From contig JBDGYV010000003.1 of NCBI GenBank assembly GCA_039588915.1, positions 5,343 to 69,342 of the forward strand: a DNA stretch of 64,000 nucleotides, read 5' to 3'. The notes under the pieces are model-generated. The model did no database searches. It had not been told where the DNA came from and worked only from the letters and a program-made list of their open reading frames with translations. Shown here piece by piece: positions 1 through 6,875 of this stretch. Position 1 is the stretch's first letter. The number at the start of each line of letters is the position of its first letter. Source of the stretch: Gemmatimonadota bacterium (lineage in GTDB: Bacteria; Gemmatimonadota; Gemmatimonadetes; JACCXV01; JAHWKZ01). Both the position numbers and the translations under genes were made by a program.

Positions 1-2242
1 GGAGGCCTTCGCCTACAGCGTGGCTCGCGGCCTCTCCGACCACCCGCGATGGCTTCACTGCCGATACCTGTACGACGAGGCCGGTAGTGAGTTGTTCACC
101 GATATCACCCAACAACCCGAGTACTATCTGACCCGCGCGGAAACCGAGATACTCGAGCAGCAGGCCGATGCGATTCGACGAGCGGTGGGGCCCCTACCAC
201 TCATGGAACTCGGTGCCGGCACGGCGGTCAAGACGCGACGACTGCTCAAGGCATGGCTCGAGGCCGACGGAAGCGCAGAGTATCTGCCACTCGACATTGA
301 CCCTTCCGTGCTGGCTCAGGCGGCCGAGCGGCTGGCGACCCAGCTGCCTGGGCTTTTCGTCACCGGGCTAGCGACATCCTACGAGCGCGGGCTCGACCTA
401 TTGGGCAAGCATCAACCGCTGTGTCTGGTCTTCCTGGGCTCTTCGATCGGCAACTTCAATCTCGAGCAAACCGACACTTTCCTGGCCCGGCTTCGATCGT
501 GTCTCTCACCCGACGACGCATTCCTGCTGGGCGTCGACTTGATTAAAGACGTCGATCAATTGGAGGCTGCCTACAACGATGCCGCCGGCGTAAGCGCGGC
601 TTTCACCCGCAACCTGTTCCATCGTATGAATCGCGAGTTGGGGTGTGAGGTCCCGGTCGACGCGATCGATCACGTCGCTTTCTGGAACGATCGACTGGAG
701 CGCATAGAGATCTACGCCCGCTTTAGGCAGGAAGTAATCGTCGAGCTTCCATCGATCGACCGAAAGTTTCGGATCGCTGCTGGCGAGATGGTGCTCACCG
801 AGATCAGCCGCAAATACCAACTGGCGAAGATCGAGTCCGACTTGGCACGGTTTGGTCTCCAGCTTGAGAGCGCGTTCACCGATCGTGAGCAGCGTTTCGG
901 TTTATTACTGTCTCGCCGCATCACTGCTACCGGTGGACCACCACGCTGGACACCGTTCGCGGCCGAGCTTCGTGCAGCACGCAGTCAGACACTTGGGCTC
1001 CTGAGCAGCCTGAGCGATGACCAGCTGAAGCAACAAGTCCTTCCGATCCTGAGCCCTATCGCCTGGGATCTATGTCACATCGCTGAGTTCGAGGAGCTGT
1101 GGTTGGTCGACGCGATCGACGGGCTCGGCAACAATGGCGAGGTTCGCGATCAACTTCCCGACGCTTACGATGCGGTCGCTACGCCCCGCACGGCCCGCGG
1201 GGAGCTCAAACTGCCGGCAGTCGATGAAATCATGCGTCAACTCAGAAGCGTACGTCGCAAAGCCTTGAAACGTGCTCGGGAGGCGGACCTGAACGCGGAC
1301 CAGCGACTCACGAGGGGAGGCTTCGTGTACCGGCTGGTTGTACAGCACGAGCATCAACACCAGGAAACGATACTCCAGTCGATCGCCCGAATGGAGAACT
1401 TCGTGTACGAGCCAGCCTACGGGGATCGACTGCCCAAGGCACCGCTGCCACCCGACACGGAAATGGTCGTTATTCCTTCGGGGGCATTCCCAATGGGCAC
1501 CAATCGAGAGGCCGACACCTACGACAACGAACGACCCGCGCACTGGGTCGACGTCGAGGCATTCTGGATCGACACTGCCCCGGTCACAGCCGGGCAGTTT
1601 CTTCAATTCGTCGACCGGGGTGGCTACGAACGGCGCGAATGGTGGTGCGACGAAGGATGGACATGGCGGATAGAACATCAAGTCGAGCAACCGCTGGGTT
1701 GGCGCCGCTCGGCAATCGGCTGGGAGGTCGTTGAATTCGGACGCCCCGAGCCATTGGTCCCCACGCGACCCGTACAGCACGTTTCCTGGTATGAGGCGCG
1801 TGCCTACGCACGCTCGGTATCAAAGCGATTGCCAACCGAAGCCGAATGGGAAAAGGCCGCTGCGTGGGATCCCGAAGCGCGGCTCGCTCGCCGCTTTCCG
1901 TGGGGCGACAGTCAACCCGAAGTGCATCACGCCAACCTCGGTGCGGAGATCTTCGGTCCCGCCCCCGTCGGTGCGTTTCCTGCCGGCCGTTCCTTCTATG
2001 GTTGTCACCACATGCTGGGCGACGTCTGGGAGTGGACGGCCAGCGAGCTAGACGGCTACCCGGGCTTCGAGGCTTACCCGTACCCGGAATACTCCGCAAT
2101 CCACTTCGGCCAGGGCTACCGTGTCCTTCGCGGAGGCTCATGGGCCACCGGTCGATCGGTAGCTCGAAACACCTTCCGCAACTGGGATCTTCCCGAGCGG
2201 CGACAGATCTTCGCCGGTTTCCGCTGCGCCCGGGACGCTTGA
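1..2242 (+). CDS. egtD-egtB: Fused histidine N-alpha-trimethyltransferase (EgtD) + type I ergothioneine sulfoxide synthase (EgtB: DinB + FGE-sulfatase); 5' end lies upstream of the window
   Basis: EgtD motifs YLYDEAGSELF, EYYLTRAE, ELGAGTAVKT, FLGSSIGNF, AAYND, TEISRKY. EgtB motifs SPIAWDLCH, QHEHQHQET (iron ligands), PYPEYS, FRNWDLPERRQIFAGFR. The frame is open from position 2. Confidence 0.92.
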   Translation, partial: EAFAYSVARGLSDHPRWLHCRYLYDEAGSELFTDITQQPEYYLTRAETEILEQQADAIRRAVGPLPLMELGAGTAVKTRRLLKAWLEADGSAEYLPLDIDPSVLAQAAERLATQLPGLFVTGLATSYERGLDLLGKHQPLCLVFLGSSIGNFNLEQTDTFLARLRSCLSPDDAFLLGVDLIKDVDQLEAAYNDAAGVSAAFTRNLFHRMNRELGCEVPVDAIDHVAFWNDRLERIEIYARFRQEVIVELPSIDRKFRIAAGEMVLTEISRKYQLAKIESDLARFGLQLESAFTDREQRFGLLLSRRITATGGPPRWTPFAAELRAARSQTLGLLSSLSDDQLKQQVLPILSPIAWDLCHIAEFEELWLVDAIDGLGNNGEVRDQLPDAYDAVATPRTARGELKLPAVDEIMRQLRSVRRKALKRAREADLNADQRLTRGGFVYRLVVQHEHQHQETILQSIARMENFVYEPAYGDRLPKAPLPPDTEMVVIPSGAFPMGTNREADTYDNERPAHWVDVEAFWIDTAPVTAGQFLQFVDRGGYERREWWCDEGWTWRIEHQVEQPLGWRRSAIGWEVVEFGRPEPLVPTRPVQHVSWYEARAYARSVSKRLPTEAEWEKAAAWDPEARLARRFPWGDSQPEVHHANLGAEIFGPAPVGAFPAGRSFYGCHHMLGDVWEWTASELDGYPGFEAYPYPEYSAIHFGQGYRVLRGGSWATGRSVARNTFRNWDLPERRQIFAGFRCARDA

Positions 2243-3273
2243 TCCAACCCGGAGAACTCGCCAAACGACTGGCAGGACTACCACTCGACGTCGAAGAGTG
2301 TCGGATCGAGATCGGCTCAGTGCCGGCGGTCGGCTACTACGGTGGAGCACCCAGACCCACCGGCACAGTCGTACTGATCGGGGGTGGATACCTCGGCCGC
2401 GGCGAAAACGTCGATTGGACACCCGAGGACCAAACGACTTTCAGGGACACCGTGCAAGACGCGGTTGCCGCCAGCCGCACGACGGTCGGTGAGCTCAGTG
2501 AGCAACTGGAGCAGGACTTGGTCGCACACCACCGGGCCGCGATCGAGGCGGCGGCCATCGACCTGGCGTTGCGTCAAGGCGAAAGCAATCTGTTTGCGAT
2601 CGCCGCGCTGCCGGCAGAGCCGGTGACCTTTTGTTGGTCGATCGGTCACGACCTGTCGAAAACCGTCGGTGGACCGCTGGCAGCGGTGCGAACAATTCTA
2701 AACGCTGAGCCAAACGCCACCCTCAAGCTTGACGTCCCGGTCGACGGATGGCCGGAAGCAACGTGGTCGGAGTTGGCTGTTATCGACCGAGTGAGGATCG
2801 TCGATTTCAAGCGTCAGGGCACAGGTCACTCTGTGGCGCTCGCGCATCGGTACTTGCCAGAGGCCTGGCTGGAAGATCCACCCCTGGAAGCGCTTAGCGA
2901 CAGCGGCCAATCGAGTGCATGGGCCGAGCGAGTGGCGGTGGACGGTTATGCAACGCGAATCGCTGACTTGGCTGGGCCCGCTTTTCGACCCGCGGCGATC
3001 AACGTCAAAGCGCCCCGCATGGGCGGCCCACTCGAAGCGTTGCGTTGTCTGGACCTATGTCGTCAGAATGGCTGGACCGCGTACATCGGGGGCATGTTTG
3101 AGGTCGGTCCCGGTCGACCCCAGGCCCGCGTGCTTGCTTCGCTGTTTACCAGCCACCAATGGAACGACTTAGCACCCATGCGGCTTTGCGATTCGGATCC
3201 CTACCCAACGAGTCCGTTGCCGATATCGTCCGACCCCCGAGGCTTTGGGGAATCCGTTTCCCTGGCCGACTAG
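2239..3273 (+). CDS. Enolase-superfamily (MenC/epimerase-like) protein of an uncharacterised subgroup
   Basis: TTG start overlaps the egtB stop (TTGA). Capping-domain motif AAIEAAAIDLALRQ; barrel motifs LKLD, VDFK, LEDP, VDG, INVKAPRMGG, YIGGMFEVGPGR. Confidence 0.8.
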   Translation: MIQPGELAKRLAGLPLDVEECRIEIGSVPAVGYYGGAPRPTGTVVLIGGGYLGRGENVDWTPEDQTTFRDTVQDAVAASRTTVGELSEQLEQDLVAHHRAAIEAAAIDLALRQGESNLFAIAALPAEPVTFCWSIGHDLSKTVGGPLAAVRTILNAEPNATLKLDVPVDGWPEATWSELAVIDRVRIVDFKRQGTGHSVALAHRYLPEAWLEDPPLEALSDSGQSSAWAERVAVDGYATRIADLAGPAFRPAAINVKAPRMGGPLEALRCLDLCRQNGWTAYIGGMFEVGPGRPQARVLASLFTSHQWNDLAPMRLCDSDPYPTSPLPISSDPRGFGESVSLAD

Positions 3274-5210
3274 CCAGCGACCCCAGGTCGAGGTGCCGCA
3301 CCCTCCTCCATGATCCGACGCGCGAAGTGATCAATCTCCATCGACCCCAGTTCCCCTTCCACGTGGGATCGAACGCTGACATGCCCTATCCCCAGCTCAC
3401 GCTCGCCGACGACGACCATGTACGGAATCTTCTGGGTCTCGGCATCCCTCACCTTGTAACCCACGCCCTCTCTCCGGTCGTCCACGTGCACTCGGACCTC
3501 GTGGCGACGTAGATGAGTGGCAACACTCTCGGCGTAATCATTGAACTGGTCGCTCACCGGAATGATGCGCACTTGCTCGGGCGCTAACCACGTAGGAAAC
3601 GCTCCTCCATAATGCTCGATGAGAACACCCAAGAACCGCTCGATCGATCCGAGGATCGTTCGATGGATGACGACCGGTCGTTCCTCGCTCCCGTCAGAGG
3701 CGGTGTAGTGCAGGTCGAAACGCTCCGGCAGGTTGAAGTCCAACTGGATCGTCGCCAACTGCCACCGGCGCCCTAGTGCGTCCGTGGCCTGAAAGTCGAT
3801 CTTGGGGCCGTAGAACGCCCCCTCGCCGGCGCTGATGGTGAACTCCCGCTCGTTATCGACCAACGCCTGCTCGAGTACCGCCTCGGCCCGATCCCACATC
3901 TCATCGGTACCAATGTACGAATCTGGGCGGGTCGATAGCTCCACCTCGATCTCGAACCCGAAGACATCCCCAAGCACGAACTCTACGAGTCCGAGCAAGG
4001 ATGTCACCTCGGCCTGAATCTGATCGGGTGTGCAGAAGATGTGTGCGTCGTCTTGAACAAACGTACGCACGCGCAGAAGCCCGCTGATGACGCCCGACTT
4101 TTCGTACCGGTGCAATCGACCGAAGTCCGTATACCGGATTGGCAGGTCTCGATACGATCGCTTGCGACTCGAGTATACGAACGTCGACGCCGGGCAGTTC
4201 ATCGGTTTGATCGCCATTTCGCGGTCATCCGCAGCGGTGAAGTACATGTGCTCGCGGTAGTTGTCGTAGTGGCCCGACCGGTGCCAGAGTTCTACATCGT
4301 AGATCTGCGGGGTGACGATTTCGTCGTGTGGCCACTCAGTTGCGAACAGTTCGCGCATGAAGCTTTGTAGCCGGTTGTAGATCCAGGCGCCCTTGGGATG
4401 AAAGTACGGGCTCGCCGGCGCGTTGGGATGAAACGAGAAAAGATCCAACTCGCGACCAAGCCGACGATGGTCACGCGCTTTGGCAGCCTCGATCCGCTCC
4501 AGGTGCTGCTCCAGCTCAGCTTTGTCGAAGAAAGCGGTCCCATAGATCCGGGTGAGCATCTTGTTCCGCTCATCGCCGCGCCAATAAGCCCCAGCGGTAG
4601 ACAACAACCGATAAATCCCCAACTTGCCGGTGGCCGGCACGTGCGGGCCGCGACAGAGGTCGATCCACTCCCCCTGGCGGTACAGCGTCAAGGTCTCGTC
4701 CGGTGGTAGGTCCTCGATGATCTCGATCTTGTAAGGCTCATCGAGCTCACGAAACAGCGCCACCGCCTCGTCGCGGGACACAACTTCGCGGGTGATCTCC
4801 AGGTTCTCCTTAGCGATCTTGGCCATCTCCGCCTCGATCGCCTCGAAATCTTCCGGCGTGAATGGCGGGTCGCGATCGAAATCGTAGTAGAAGCCATCGG
4901 CTATTACGGGACCGATCGTCACTTTGGTCTCGGGCCACAGCCGCTGAACCGCCTGGGCCATGAGATGGGCGGTGGAATGACGGAAGATATCGAGCGCCTC
5001 GGGGTCACGGCTGGTCAGGATCCGGAGTTGGGAGTCGCGCTCCAGCGGCCGACCTAGGTCGTAGGGTTGCCCGTCGACCTCCGCCGCCAACGCCGCCCGA
5101 GCGAGACCGGAGCCGATCCGGCTTGCGACGTCGAGCGGCGTTGAACCGGCCGCCATGTCAAGTGTGGCCCCATCGGGCAGAGCGATGGTCGTGGTCTTTT
5201 CGTTAGTCAT
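3270..5210 (-). CDS. thrS: Threonine--tRNA ligase
   Basis: N-terminal TGS domain, HSTAHLMAQA, DLCRGPH, KPMNCP, GAFYGPKID, TIQLDF. Confidence 0.98.
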   Translation of the reverse strand: MTNEKTTTIALPDGATLDMAAGSTPLDVASRIGSGLARAALAAEVDGQPYDLGRPLERDSQLRILTSRDPEALDIFRHSTAHLMAQAVQRLWPETKVTIGPVIADGFYYDFDRDPPFTPEDFEAIEAEMAKIAKENLEITREVVSRDEAVALFRELDEPYKIEIIEDLPPDETLTLYRQGEWIDLCRGPHVPATGKLGIYRLLSTAGAYWRGDERNKMLTRIYGTAFFDKAELEQHLERIEAAKARDHRRLGRELDLFSFHPNAPASPYFHPKGAWIYNRLQSFMRELFATEWPHDEIVTPQIYDVELWHRSGHYDNYREHMYFTAADDREMAIKPMNCPASTFVYSSRKRSYRDLPIRYTDFGRLHRYEKSGVISGLLRVRTFVQDDAHIFCTPDQIQAEVTSLLGLVEFVLGDVFGFEIEVELSTRPDSYIGTDEMWDRAEAVLEQALVDNEREFTISAGEGAFYGPKIDFQATDALGRRWQLATIQLDFNLPERFDLHYTASDGSEERPVVIHRTILGSIERFLGVLIEHYGGAFPTWLAPEQVRIIPVSDQFNDYAESVATHLRRHEVRVHVDDRREGVGYKVRDAETQKIPYMVVVGERELGIGHVSVRSHVEGELGSMEIDHFARRIMEEGAAPRPGVAG

Positions 5211-5271: not shown

Positions 5272-5643
5272 CTAATCCACTTCGGCGGCAGCTTCAGTTG
5301 AGATGTCGGGACCGAGCCAGCCCCAACGCTCGAAATCCACCCGTCCGTCGAGATCGAACTTAACGCCCTCCCGCTCGAGCAGGGCTCGCTGAAGCTCTGG
5401 CGGAATCCCGACCTTGCCGATTGAGATCTCCCCATGCACGTTGATTATCCGCTGCCACGGGACATCAGCGTCTTCCGGAAGCGCGTGGAGCGCCCACCCC
5501 ACGGTCCTAGCCGCTCTCGGTTTGCCGCATAGCGCCGCTATGTGACCGTAGGTTGCCACTCTCCCGCGAGGGACACGTCGAACCATCGCGTAGACATCTT
5601 CGTAAAACGACGACCTAGATCGTTTGGGCGTGGCGGGAGTCAC
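5272..5643 (-). CDS. Alkyltransferase-like (ATL, MGMT-family) DNA-binding protein
   Basis: VPRGRVATYGHIA, ARTVGWAL; VPWQRII has Trp in place of the catalytic Cys of PCHRV. Confidence 0.88.
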   Translation of the reverse strand: MTPATPKRSRSSFYEDVYAMVRRVPRGRVATYGHIAALCGKPRAARTVGWALHALPEDADVPWQRIINVHGEISIGKVGIPPELQRALLEREGVKFDLDGRVDFERWGWLGPDISTEAAAEVD

Positions 5644-5835: not shown

Positions 5836-6309
5836 TCAGCCGATCTCTAGATTTCCGCAGGCGACAATGTTACCGATCTCTTCCTCGGACTCGTGCACAT
5901 TGACGTAGTAGTCAGCTCCTGGCTCGAGCGTGGCTTCGAACCTCGCCGTGGCGTTGTCTTGTCCCTCGGTCGAGCTCGGAACCAGCGGCGGGTAGTCGTC
6001 AGGATTGCCCAGTATCGGCCCATCGGAGCCGCATCGGCCCACGTGGACGTGCCACGGATAGCTTCCCGCAGCAAGGCCTCCCCGCAGCGTAAGAGTAGCT
6101 CGTACCGACAAGTCTGGGAGCCGCGTCATCGTTGCATTGGCCACCGAGTTCTCCTCGGCGAACTGCCCCCCACCTACTGCCGTATAAACGCGACCGTGCC
6201 ACTGCTCGCCCTCCTGTTGGCGGGCTTGTCTCGAGCTACATGCAAAAAGTGCGGTCATGGTGAACACGACCGCGAGGGCGACTGACAGATGCTCGAGTCG
6301 ACGCATAAC
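5836..6309 (-). CDS. Lipoprotein with a Cu/Zn-SOD-like or CHRD-like fold (island cargo)
   Basis: GGGGGAG SD before MRRLEH; lipobox LFAC; motifs WHVHVGRC, YYVNVH, IVACG. Confidence 0.65.
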   Translation of the reverse strand, partial: VMRRLEHLSVALAVVFTMTALFACSSRQARQQEGEQWHGRVYTAVGGGQFAEENSVANATMTRLPDLSVRATLTLRGGLAAGSYPWHVHVGRCGSDGPILGNPDDYPPLVPSSTEGQDNATARFEATLEPGADYYVNVHESEEEIGNIVACGNLEIG

Positions 6310-6446
6310 TCCCCCTTTTCTGGCTTCTTCTTCTGTCAAACCGGACCCAAAACTCTCAAGAGCAATCTCGTACCTTTGTCGAGGCGTGTTTACTTTATCG
6401 AGCCTACCACGAAAAGCGTTGAACGGTCAAACAAAAGGGATTACCT

Positions 6447-6724
6447 GCCGGAAAGACCCGTCAAAGCCGATGGACCGCCACCTCGCGGACAGATGGCTGC
6501 GAGAGGCCGAAAAGCTGGCTGGGCTAGAGCCGCAGGAGGGCGGCTTTTGGCACCCGTTCCGCAGAAAAGCGGCCACAGAACTCAAGGGGGCGCCAGACAA
6601 GGATGTCATGGCGCTTCTCGGGTGGAGTGATCTGCGCAGCCTCAAGACAGCCTGCCAGCACGCTGACCCCACCACCATGCTCACGGCTCTCGAATCCCGC
6701 CAGGAGCTACGGGAGGTTCGATGA
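6447..6724 (+). pseudogene. Tyrosine recombinase/integrase C-terminal remnant (5' boundary approximate)
   Basis: FWHPFRR (HxxR box), LLGW, LKTACQHAD with Cys (TGC, 6653-6655) where the catalytic Tyr is expected; no N-terminal domain seen. Confidence 0.75.
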
Positions 6725-6799: not shown

Positions 6800-6875
6800 T
6801 GGTGGAGCTGATCGGAATCGAACCGACGACCTCCTGAGTGCGATTCAGGCGCTCTCCCAGCTGAGCTACAGCCCC
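6800..6875 (-). tRNA. tRNA-Ala (anticodon CGC)
   Basis: GGGGCTGTAGCTCAGCTGGGAGAGCG-CCTGA-ATCGCAC-TCAGG...GGTTCGATTCC...CACCA; 76 nt, CCA encoded. Confidence 0.97.

Follow-up and report, generated by a model that had tools for sequence, protein, structure and literature searches.

Organization of the locus

The window analyzed here is a stretch of 64,000 nucleotides from a Gemmatimonadota bacterium (positions 5343-69342 of contig G000:C3), whose first 3273 nucleotides hold most of an egtD-egtB fusion gene and, overlapping its stop codon, a gene for an enolase-superfamily enzyme of family DUF8230. Region 1-3273 is best explained as a two-gene, translationally coupled ergothioneine operon, in which the second product would act as a C-S lyase.

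1-2242, + strand: egtD-egtB fusion gene, of which the window holds codons 40-785 (the 3' 746 codons), from open reading frame, Pfam and NCBIfam
14-916, + strand: EgtD domain, histidine N-alpha-methyltransferase (Pfam Methyltransf_33, PF10017; 318.8 bits), fusion residues 44-344
968-1372, + strand: DinB_2 domain of EgtB (Pfam, 56 bits), fusion residues 362-496
1076-1078, 1346-1348 and 1358-1360, + strand: EgtB iron ligands His398, His488 and His492, within the DinB_2 domain
1187-1198, + strand: Arg435 and Arg438, in the DinB_2 domain, aligned to Arg87 and Arg90 of M. thermoresistibile EgtB
1457-2233, + strand: FGE-sulfatase-like domain of EgtB (Pfam, 215 bits), fusion residues 525-783
2081-2092, + strand: Tyr733 and Tyr736, in the FGE-sulfatase domain, aligned to Tyr377 and Tyr380 of M. 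thermoresistibile EgtB
2183-2200, + strand: Trp767-Asp768 and Arg772, aligned to Trp415, Asp416 and Arg420 of M. thermoresistibile EgtB
2239-2242, + strand: TTGA start/stop overlap (translational coupling)
2239-3273, + strand: DUF8230 enolase-superfamily (MLE-subgroup-like) enzyme of 344 amino acids, proposed C-S lyase

The fusion starts at an ATG located 115 nucleotides before the window (L003:5227, L003 being this locus) and its full product is 785 amino acids long. Both halves of this single frame exceed the cut-offs of their NCBIfam equivalogs, which bears out the EgtD-EgtB fusion proposed in a preliminary description of this DNA: the EgtD half scores 304.3 bits with TIGR03438 (cut-off 290.9; profile positions 4-300 of 301) and the EgtB half, with its DinB_2 plus FGE-sulfatase architecture, 376.8 bits with TIGR03440 (cut-off 360). 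The SenA equivalog of NCBIfam was not reached by the EgtB half (333.7 bits, cut-off 420).

As had also been described, the second gene begins with a TTG (2239-2241) whose bases overlap those of the egtB stop codon TGA (2240-2242), within gacgcTTGAtcc (cTTGAt); this start is supported because homologues open with the same N-terminus, MI.PGELAKRL. At the other end, the TAG stop of the enzyme gene and the stop of thrS, a convergent gene on the minus strand (3270-5210), have CTAG in common.

The second gene encodes an enolase-superfamily enzyme

No Pfam model, the MR_MLE models included, matched the enzyme in a Pfam set without the DUF8230 models PF26684 and PF26685. Likewise, the enzyme stayed below the NSAR/OSBS equivalog menC of NCBIfam (TIGR01928; cut-off 200.65), scoring 34 bits with residues 253-306 alone, and the matches obtained with phmmer against the PDB were confined to residues 251-314. 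The sequence signal for an enolase fold is thus weaker than the preliminary description implied, whereas the predicted structure makes the fold itself firm. The AlphaFold2 model, built from a 37-sequence alignment, has a predicted local distance difference test score (pLDDT) of 92.1 and a predicted template modelling score (pTM) of 0.92; Foldseek matched it to MLE-subgroup structures with E values of 1e-14, and VIA-align superposed it on MLE, NSAR/OSBS, dipeptide epimerases and betaine epimerases with Z scores of 28-30 over ~310-320 residues at a root mean square deviation (rmsd) of ~3 A. The predicted fold, firmly of the MLE type of the enolase superfamily, consists of a capping domain plus a modified TIM barrel. 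Structural rank does not tell these four groups apart, all of which lie within ~2 Z units.

Family membership of the enzyme is taken from the labels on its homologues. A word-indexed search returned 152 relatives at E <= 0.001, and among the 120 homologues listed 118 carry precomputed labels for both PF26684 and PF26685, the other two for PF26685 alone; those with both labels are 38-88% identical to the window enzyme. Their source names are 'hypothetical protein', generic enolase-superfamily names and, twice, 'O-succinylbenzoate synthase'. These models are DUF8230_N and DUF8230_C in Pfam 38.1, and the Atlas clusters closest to one homologue, P0011, are DUF8230 with a score of 0.97. The enzyme is therefore placed, through its homologues, in Pfam DUF8230, a family without assigned function and a small one: an exhaustive profile search of 1.84 billion representatives returned 907 at E <= 1e-10, of which 178 reach E <= 1e-30. 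In the literature searched we found no mention of PF26684 or PF26685.

The active site keeps one catalytic lysine of two

To map the active site, the family profile was aligned to the structures 1sja (Amycolatopsis), 1wue (E. faecalis) and 2zc8 (T. thermophilus). The enzyme codons concerned, all on the + strand, are as follows.

2725-2727: Lys163; Lys163-Leu-Asp165 corresponds to Lys161-Leu-Lys163 of NSAR/OSBS, the KxK motif of strand 2
2731-2733: Asp165, in the place of the second Lys of that motif
2803-2805: Asp189, metal ligand, equivalent to Asp189 of NSAR/OSBS 1sja
2809-2811: Lys191
2872-2874: Glu212, metal ligand, equivalent to Glu214 of 1sja
2941-2943: Asp235, metal ligand, equivalent to Asp239 of 1sja
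3007-3009: Lys257, catalytic Lys of strand 6, equivalent to Lys263 of NSAR/OSBS
3016-3018: Arg260, equivalent to Arg266 of NSAR/OSBS, which activates Lys263

All of these residues, Lys191 (in the motif DFK) among them, plus Asp213, are invariant in 37 out of 37 sequences, and stay so in a wider set that takes in unlinked paralogues. The pair of lysines typical of the MLE subgroup is incomplete: in three independent PDB alignments the second Lys of KxK is Asp165, an exchange found in all fusion-linked (56/56), Actinomycetota-linked (3/3) and unlinked (5/5) members. In NSAR/OSBS, Lys163 and Lys263 are described as the two bases of a 1,1-proton transfer, with Arg266 raising the reactivity of Lys263 in alpha-proton exchange (10.1101/2022.03.03.481873). 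An Asp in the place of the opposite-face Lys speaks in favour of an elimination with one base rather than of a racemase with two. By homology, the family appears to keep Mg2+-assisted carboxylate binding and alpha-proton abstraction on one face, the opposite-face Lys having been lost; the make-up of the active site thus seems to favour a lyase over an epimerase, the two options that the preliminary description had offered.

The NSAR/OSBS enzymes (Amycolatopsis 1sja and 7s8w, E. faecalis 1wue) are the best sequence relatives in the PDB, with profile E values of 1e-19 to 1e-13 and ~20% identity, and display the same two-domain fold (Z 29-30, ~316 residues, rmsd ~3 A). They have in common with the DUF8230 enzyme the three metal ligands, the first Lys of KxK, the Lys of beta-6 followed by Arg (NxKxxRxGG) and the motif GGMxExGxGR, and their known substrates are N-acyl amino acids. 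The DUF8230 enzyme differs from them in the invariant Asp165, in an invariant Lys191 where they have Asn two residues after the first metal ligand, and in its gene context, which is ergothioneine rather than menaquinone or D-amino-acid conversion. HpbD, a 2-epimerase of 4R-hydroxyproline betaine (4h2h, 4izg), and the dipeptide epimerases of the MLE subgroup also have this fold (Z 28-29); in their substrates a carboxylate stands beside a nitrogen that is quaternary or acylated, which is also true of hercynine-derived compounds. Both catalytic lysines are kept in these epimerases, unlike in the DUF8230 enzyme.

The enzyme gene is linked to egtB and egtD in several phyla

Homologues were collected with one genome per species, yielding 72 loci to each of which the EgtD, EgtB and enzyme sequences of the window were compared. 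In 58 of the 72 an egtB lies immediately upstream on the same strand, and wherever the contig is long enough (52/52 loci, the other six contigs ending first) EgtD and EgtB form a single uninterrupted frame. An NTGA start/stop overlap is present in 19 of these 58 loci, while most others start within ~15 nucleotides of the stop. In a further six loci, all from Actinomycetota (Thermoleophilia and others), the enzyme gene adjoins separate egtB and egtD genes on the opposite strand; in one of them, L054, it lies between egtB and egtD, the place occupied by egtC in 13 metagenome loci. Linkage is thus seen in 64/72 loci, from Gemmatimonadota, Myxococcota, Binatota, Thermodesulfobacteriota, Chloroflexota and Actinomycetota, and the survey of other genomes that the preliminary description had called for shows that the enolase-egtB association is kept in two gene architectures and in at least five phyla. 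This linkage is far beyond chance, and we regard the enzyme as very probably a dedicated partner of the egtDB module.

The remaining eight loci (L050, L057, L064, L067, L068, L069, L072 and L075) have no egt gene on the available DNA, the contig of L064 beginning within the enzyme gene, and the gene contexts of the unlinked homologues have no common theme. L050, a Binatia copy (L050:2372-4186) nested in the egt-linked clade, is the C-terminal half of a 604-amino-acid open reading frame (ORF), whose N-terminal ~280 residues have no Pfam match. The genome of the window itself has a second DUF8230 paralogue, 33% identical and with the same catalytic residues, right after tyrS (G000:C99:3302-4189, L002:1498-2424); the same tyrS-paralogue pair occurs in genome G236 (61% and 72% identity).

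Genes flanking the operon vary among loci. The sole recurring neighbour is an OpuA-type ATP-binding cassette (ABC) transporter, found in at least 9 of 27 surveyed loci, and no PLP (pyridoxal 5'-phosphate) lyase, EgtC or EgtA was seen in the flanks of those 27. In this genome the OpuA-type betaine transporter (ATPase, permease and OpuAC binding protein) is divergent from egtDB (L003:2887-5202, minus strand), and in some of those at other loci the binding domain is fused to the permease; the transporter may move ergothioneine or hercynine.

Fusions between EgtB and the enzyme were also looked for. A single EgtB-enzyme frame in L005 was rejected as a natural fusion: relative to the window, an 80-nucleotide deletion (L005:6570-6690) removes the last ~26 egtB codons, essential EgtB residues among them, and probably reflects faulty assembly of this metagenome-assembled genome or else an inactive allele. 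No fused EgtB-enzyme form was found among the longer proteins, which is weak evidence, and seven long or oddly placed representatives were without an EgtB domain.

Enzyme and EgtB are inherited together

An EgtB tree of 142 rows was built, from which L001 (a duplicate of the window's own locus) and matches with fewer than 370 aligned residues had been dropped. It divides into a type II-like clade, whose 40 rows all lack the enzyme, and a type I-like clade of 102 rows, inside which the EgtD-EgtB fusions form one clade of 55 rows with a Shimodaira-Hasegawa-like approximate likelihood ratio (SH-aLRT) support of 98. The enzyme accompanies 53 of these 55; L073 is cut by a contig end, and L096, from G236, is a true loss. 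Five Actinomycetota rows make up a second enzyme-linked clade, beside classical egtB-egtC-egtD loci.

In the enzyme tree, made with FastTree from 70 rows, 58 rows fall into one clade, 57 of them fusion-linked and the other the unlinked L050; the Gemmatimonadota and Myxococcota groupings of this clade are the same as those of the EgtB tree, while the Actinomycetota-linked enzymes stand apart, among unlinked members. The module has thus been inherited as a unit, and in the trees of both proteins the link to egtB is found in two separate lineages. As the labels cluster among kin, the linkage counts do not stand for independent events.

A search of metagenome contigs with the fusion alignment returned only unfused loci (80/80; 45 with egtB before egtD, 35 with egtB only), none of them with the enzyme gene, so that it serves only as a negative control. 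Two open frames around egtB, of 788 amino acids in L098 (G184:C16) and 750 amino acids in L099 (G116:C28), have egtB before egtD and no enzyme gene, and may be fusions in the opposite order, EgtB-EgtD; L098, together with L111, is sister to the EgtD-EgtB fusion clade, and L099 falls in a different type I-like subclade.

The fused EgtB is of type I

The EgtB domain of the fusion scores 332 bits with the type I enzyme of M. thermoresistibile (MthEgtB, 4x8b) versus 160 bits with the type II structure 6o6l. Its ligands His398, His488 and His492 align to His51, His134 and His138 of 4x8b and are invariant in 12/12 fused proteins. For MthEgtB, Arg87, Arg90, Tyr380, Trp415, Asp416 and Arg420 are given as the residues binding trimethylhistidine (TMH) and gamma-glutamylcysteine, with Tyr377 as the catalytic one (PMC4768315). 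The window EgtB carries all six plus the equivalent of Tyr377; across the fused clade the substrate-binding residues are kept in 52-53 of 53 rows (Asp768 and Arg772, the equivalents of Asp416 and Arg420, in 52) and Tyr733, equivalent to Tyr377, in all 53. In the type II-like clade positions 415/416 are Phe/Phe, position 420 varies and Tyr377 is missing. A type I assignment, as the preliminary description had presumed, is thus supported by score, by phylogeny and by the residues that bind substrate.

In the classification of NHISS enzymes into types I-IV, type II stands for the cysteine-using route without EgtC (PMC11993508, PMC11030361). We infer from the residues above that the sulfur donor of the fused EgtB would be gamma-glutamylcysteine. 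A GCS2/YbdK-family carboxylate-amine ligase, present in this genome and in 44/50 genomes with the DUF8230 enzyme, is a possible source of it; GshA (PF04262) was not found in this genome.

EgtA, EgtC and EgtE were not found

The preliminary description had noted no egtA, egtC or egtE after the enzyme gene, where the convergent thrS follows. None of the three is found upstream of the window or next to the operon either: beyond the divergent transporter lie a glyoxalase-fold gene and two unassigned ORFs, one of 535 amino acids. Nor were they found elsewhere in this 95.6% complete genome: the best score for EgtC (TIGR03442) is 20.5 bits (cut-off 218.65), the best for EgtE (TIGR04343) is 93.3 bits (cut-off 400), reached by a member of a set of six generic class-V PLP enzymes, and nothing matched EgtA.

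For EgtC and EgtE the same holds in 50 enzyme-bearing genomes. EgtC is above its cut-off in none of them, with near misses of 189.9 (G038) and 179.8 bits (G049), and EgtE in none, with a best score of 169.6 against 400. In G038 an EgtC-like gene (G038:C10:1577391-1578239) is located ~7 kb downstream of the egtDB-enzyme operon, just past the end of L046; on no other contig were both seen. When L010 (G006) and L023 (G017), which are also rows of the trees, are omitted, the counts become 56/70 same-strand loci and 0/48 genomes for EgtC and for EgtE, and our conclusions are unchanged. Moreover, the EgtC-like protein of a Gemmatimonadota egtB locus (L100), used as a query, has relatives in 18 loci, all of them with a type I-like egtB and lacking the enzyme, and in 0/72 enzyme loci. 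This mutual exclusion at the loci is best explained if the enzyme removes the need for EgtC.

In a sample of 251 Gemmatimonadota genomes, with G107, G147 and G206 included in both tallies, EgtB is above its cut-off in 84, and EgtC-like genes occur in 21, scoring 134-209 bits among the matches listed, all below the curated cut-off. The enzyme profile, scored on the best 8 candidates per genome so that misses are possible, matches in at least three (G000, G271 and G236).

A survey of 2026 lists as neighbours of NHISS genes EgtD (69.9%), EgtC (15.2%), ABC-transporter ATPases (13.6%), EgtE (6.2%) and RacX-type racemases (0.8%); the list in its main text has no enolase-type family, and minimal or NHISS-only clusters are taken there to borrow a C-S lyase encoded elsewhere (PMC13674229).

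Proposed pathway and alternatives

In the pathway that we propose, the EgtD half of the fusion would make hercynine from histidine and the type I EgtB half, an iron enzyme, would join hercynine to the sulfur of gamma-glutamylcysteine, giving the sulfoxide. The free cysteinyl carboxylate of gamma-glutamyl-hercynylcysteine sulfoxide would then be bound by the Mg2+ on Asp189, Glu212 and Asp235 of the DUF8230 enzyme; Lys257, tuned by Arg260, would take the alpha-proton, and the enediolate, stabilised by Mg2+ and Lys163, would expel ergothioneine sulfenate from the beta-carbon. Cellular thiols would reduce the sulfenate to ergothioneine, while the co-product gamma-glutamyl-dehydroalanine would decay to glutamine and pyruvate.

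In the mycobacterial route, EgtC must remove glutamate first because the PLP enzyme EgtE needs a free amine. The elimination proposed here needs the carboxylate and not the free amine; the gamma-glutamyl group need not leave first, and one enzyme would replace EgtC plus EgtE. That N-gamma-glutamyl group would resemble the N-succinyl group in the substrates of the nearest solved relatives. The single idea of an elimination explains the gene coupling, the lack of EgtC and EgtE, the exclusion of EgtC, the position of the gene in L054 and the loss of the second Lys.

The best reading of these sequences, to which we give a probability of roughly 45%, is a C-S lyase that depends on Mg and not on PLP and takes the N-gamma-glutamyl sulfoxide as its substrate. 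C-S lyase activity on one or the other sulfoxide we would put at close to an even chance, and that the enzyme acts on the gamma-glutamyl form specifically is rather doubtful. Every premise of the preliminary description that could be checked (type I EgtB, no egtA/egtC/egtE, conserved enolase-egtB linkage) has held. In the literature searched, no paper ties DUF8230 or the enolase superfamily to ergothioneine, and none among the matches listed does so for MLE, OSBS or dipeptide-epimerase enzymes; where missing or PLP-independent C-S lyases, or bacterial EgtD-EgtB fusions, were looked for, only reviews and engineering papers came up. An operon with a DUF8230 enzyme is thus not described in that literature, and its interpretation is plausible and better founded than before.

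Several observations weigh against a C-S lyase on the gamma-glutamyl sulfoxide. To our knowledge no enolase-superfamily enzyme cleaves a C-S bond. Paralogues that are unlinked to egt genes, including the one in this same genome, have an identical set of catalytic residues, and no useful residue is common only to both egt-linked enzyme clades apart from a weak Ala312. G236, of the same family as this genome, keeps the fusion, the transporter and thrS and is without the enzyme and without EgtC, a convergent saccharopine-dehydrogenase-like gene occupying the enzyme site (L096:4940-6403, G236:C88); the enzyme is therefore dispensable or replaceable in at least one lineage. The six generic class-V PLP enzymes of the window's genome could act as unspecific C-S lyases. 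The type I residue signature is also present in EgtBs with neither EgtC nor the DUF8230 enzyme at the locus (25 rows of the EgtB tree; 23 rows, in two groups, of the residue comparison), and in genus g7 EgtB occurs in 16/17 genomes and an EgtC-like gene in 0/17; this signature thus proves neither the use of gamma-glutamylcysteine nor the need for a dedicated downstream enzyme. Finally, the GCS2 ligase is of YbdK type and may or may not make gamma-glutamylcysteine.

With regard to G236, a full-sensitivity hidden Markov model search found no enzyme remnant, and what the enzyme profile matches there is the orthologue of the tyrS-linked paralogue, the egt-linked gene having no counterpart in that match. 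L011 has a comparable dehydrogenase gene downstream of its operon.

The same elimination chemistry could operate on another substrate: if the fused EgtB used free cysteine, the enzyme would be a C-S lyase on plain hercynylcysteine sulfoxide and would replace EgtE only. Many type I-like EgtBs have no EgtC in locus or genome, suggesting that cysteine use may occur in this clade; most egtB-egtD clusters lack egtC, as the 15.2% for EgtC versus 69.9% for EgtD show (PMC13674229), and EgtE is absent from all 50 enzyme-bearing genomes. Asp768 and Arg772, however, which are replaced in the cysteine-using type II-like clade, are kept in 52/53 fused-clade rows, the exclusion between enzyme and EgtC finds its best explanation in a removed need for EgtC, and the closest solved relatives work on N-acylated and not on free amino acids, so we consider this substrate unlikely.

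By analogy with 4-hydroxyproline betaine 2-epimerase, of the same subgroup, the enzyme could instead racemise or epimerise a betaine or a pathway intermediate (at hercynine, at ergothioneine or at the cysteine alpha-carbon of the sulfoxide) and so make or salvage a D-product. The betaine epimerases 4h2h and 4izg match the fold at Z 28.2-28.3, ~2 below the top Z of 30.2, an OpuA-type betaine transporter stands beside the operon here and in at least 9/27 surveyed loci, and RacX racemase genes, of another family, are found near 0.8% of NHISS genes (PMC13674229); Arg260 occupies a position at which the subgroup's racemases and epimerases depend on a positive charge (10.1101/2022.03.03.481873). The opposite-face base Lys is nevertheless replaced by an invariant Asp, so that a two-base transfer would need an unprecedented Asp or Lys191 base, and the exclusion of EgtC and the lack of EgtE would be left unexplained; an epimerase is therefore improbable in our view.

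A third alternative leaves the C-S cleavage to housekeeping PLP enzymes and has the DUF8230 enzyme tailor or recycle the product, perhaps by turning ergothioneine, as such or oxidised, into another thiohistidine metabolite. It agrees with the borrowed C-S lyase reported for two-gene and NHISS-only clusters (PMC13674229), with the six class-V PLP enzymes of this genome, with G236, which manages without the enzyme, and with the unlinked paralogues that have the same catalytic residues. The gamma-glutamyl intermediate would still need an amidase, none of which was found, and the start/stop overlap together with co-inheritance with one EgtB clade (53/55 rows) fits a core step better, leaving this alternative only a small chance.

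That the neighbourhood is meaningless, an unrelated metabolic gene standing with egtDB by chance or shared regulation, would suit the 8/72 homologues without egt neighbour and the paralogue that follows tyrS, yet is very improbable given 64/72 linked loci in six named phyla, two architectures, congruent trees and otherwise variable flanks. Amidase, ligase and trimethylamine-lyase roles were rejected because their reactions do not start from proton abstraction alpha to a carboxylate.

Neighbouring genes

A scan for promoters and terminators gave nothing beyond chance. Downstream of thrS the window contains the following.

5272-5643, minus strand: MGMT-like DNA-binding-domain protein
6257-6724, + strand: ORF whose C-terminus resembles the end of a tyrosine recombinase (by eye only)
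6800-6875, minus strand: tRNA-Ala(CGC)

These three may be the remnant of an integrated element.

Comparison with known pathways and significance

The system described here shares with the mycobacterial EgtA-E pathway an EgtD and a type I EgtB whose iron ligands, catalytic Tyr and substrate residues are the same; it differs in that EgtD and EgtB are fused, in the order D-B, that no EgtA, EgtC or EgtE equivalog was found in the genome, and that a DUF8230 enzyme is present. Fungal Egt1 is also an EgtD-EgtB fusion, of type III and cysteine-using, which works with the PLP lyase Egt2. Its domain order (methyltransferase, then sulfoxide synthase) and short pathway are similar to what we find, whereas the fusion of the window falls among the bacterial EgtBs of type I, and the enzyme coupled to it is not of the PLP kind. 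Two-gene fungal ergothioneine routes have been mentioned before (PMC11993508).

The finish of ergothioneine synthesis in the absence of egtC and egtE is usually ascribed to a borrowed housekeeping lyase; here there is a dedicated and conserved third gene, and the active site of its product points to a chemistry that is not known in the superfamily. DUF8230 would then be the first C-S beta-lyase of the enolase superfamily, collapsing the EgtC and EgtE steps into one and defining a third aerobic bacterial route in at least five phyla, a claim for which we judge the odds to be somewhat unfavourable. If it is true, a Pfam DUF would gain a function, C-S elimination would be a new type of reaction for the enolase superfamily, and one enzyme would have replaced two that are not homologous to it; the unlinked paralogues would be lyases for other N-acyl amino acids with a beta-leaving group. 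The operon would also provide a compact two-gene, PLP-independent cassette for ergothioneine production, and ergothioneine producers would become recognisable in Gemmatimonadota, Myxococcota, Binatota and related uncultured lineages of soil and sediment.

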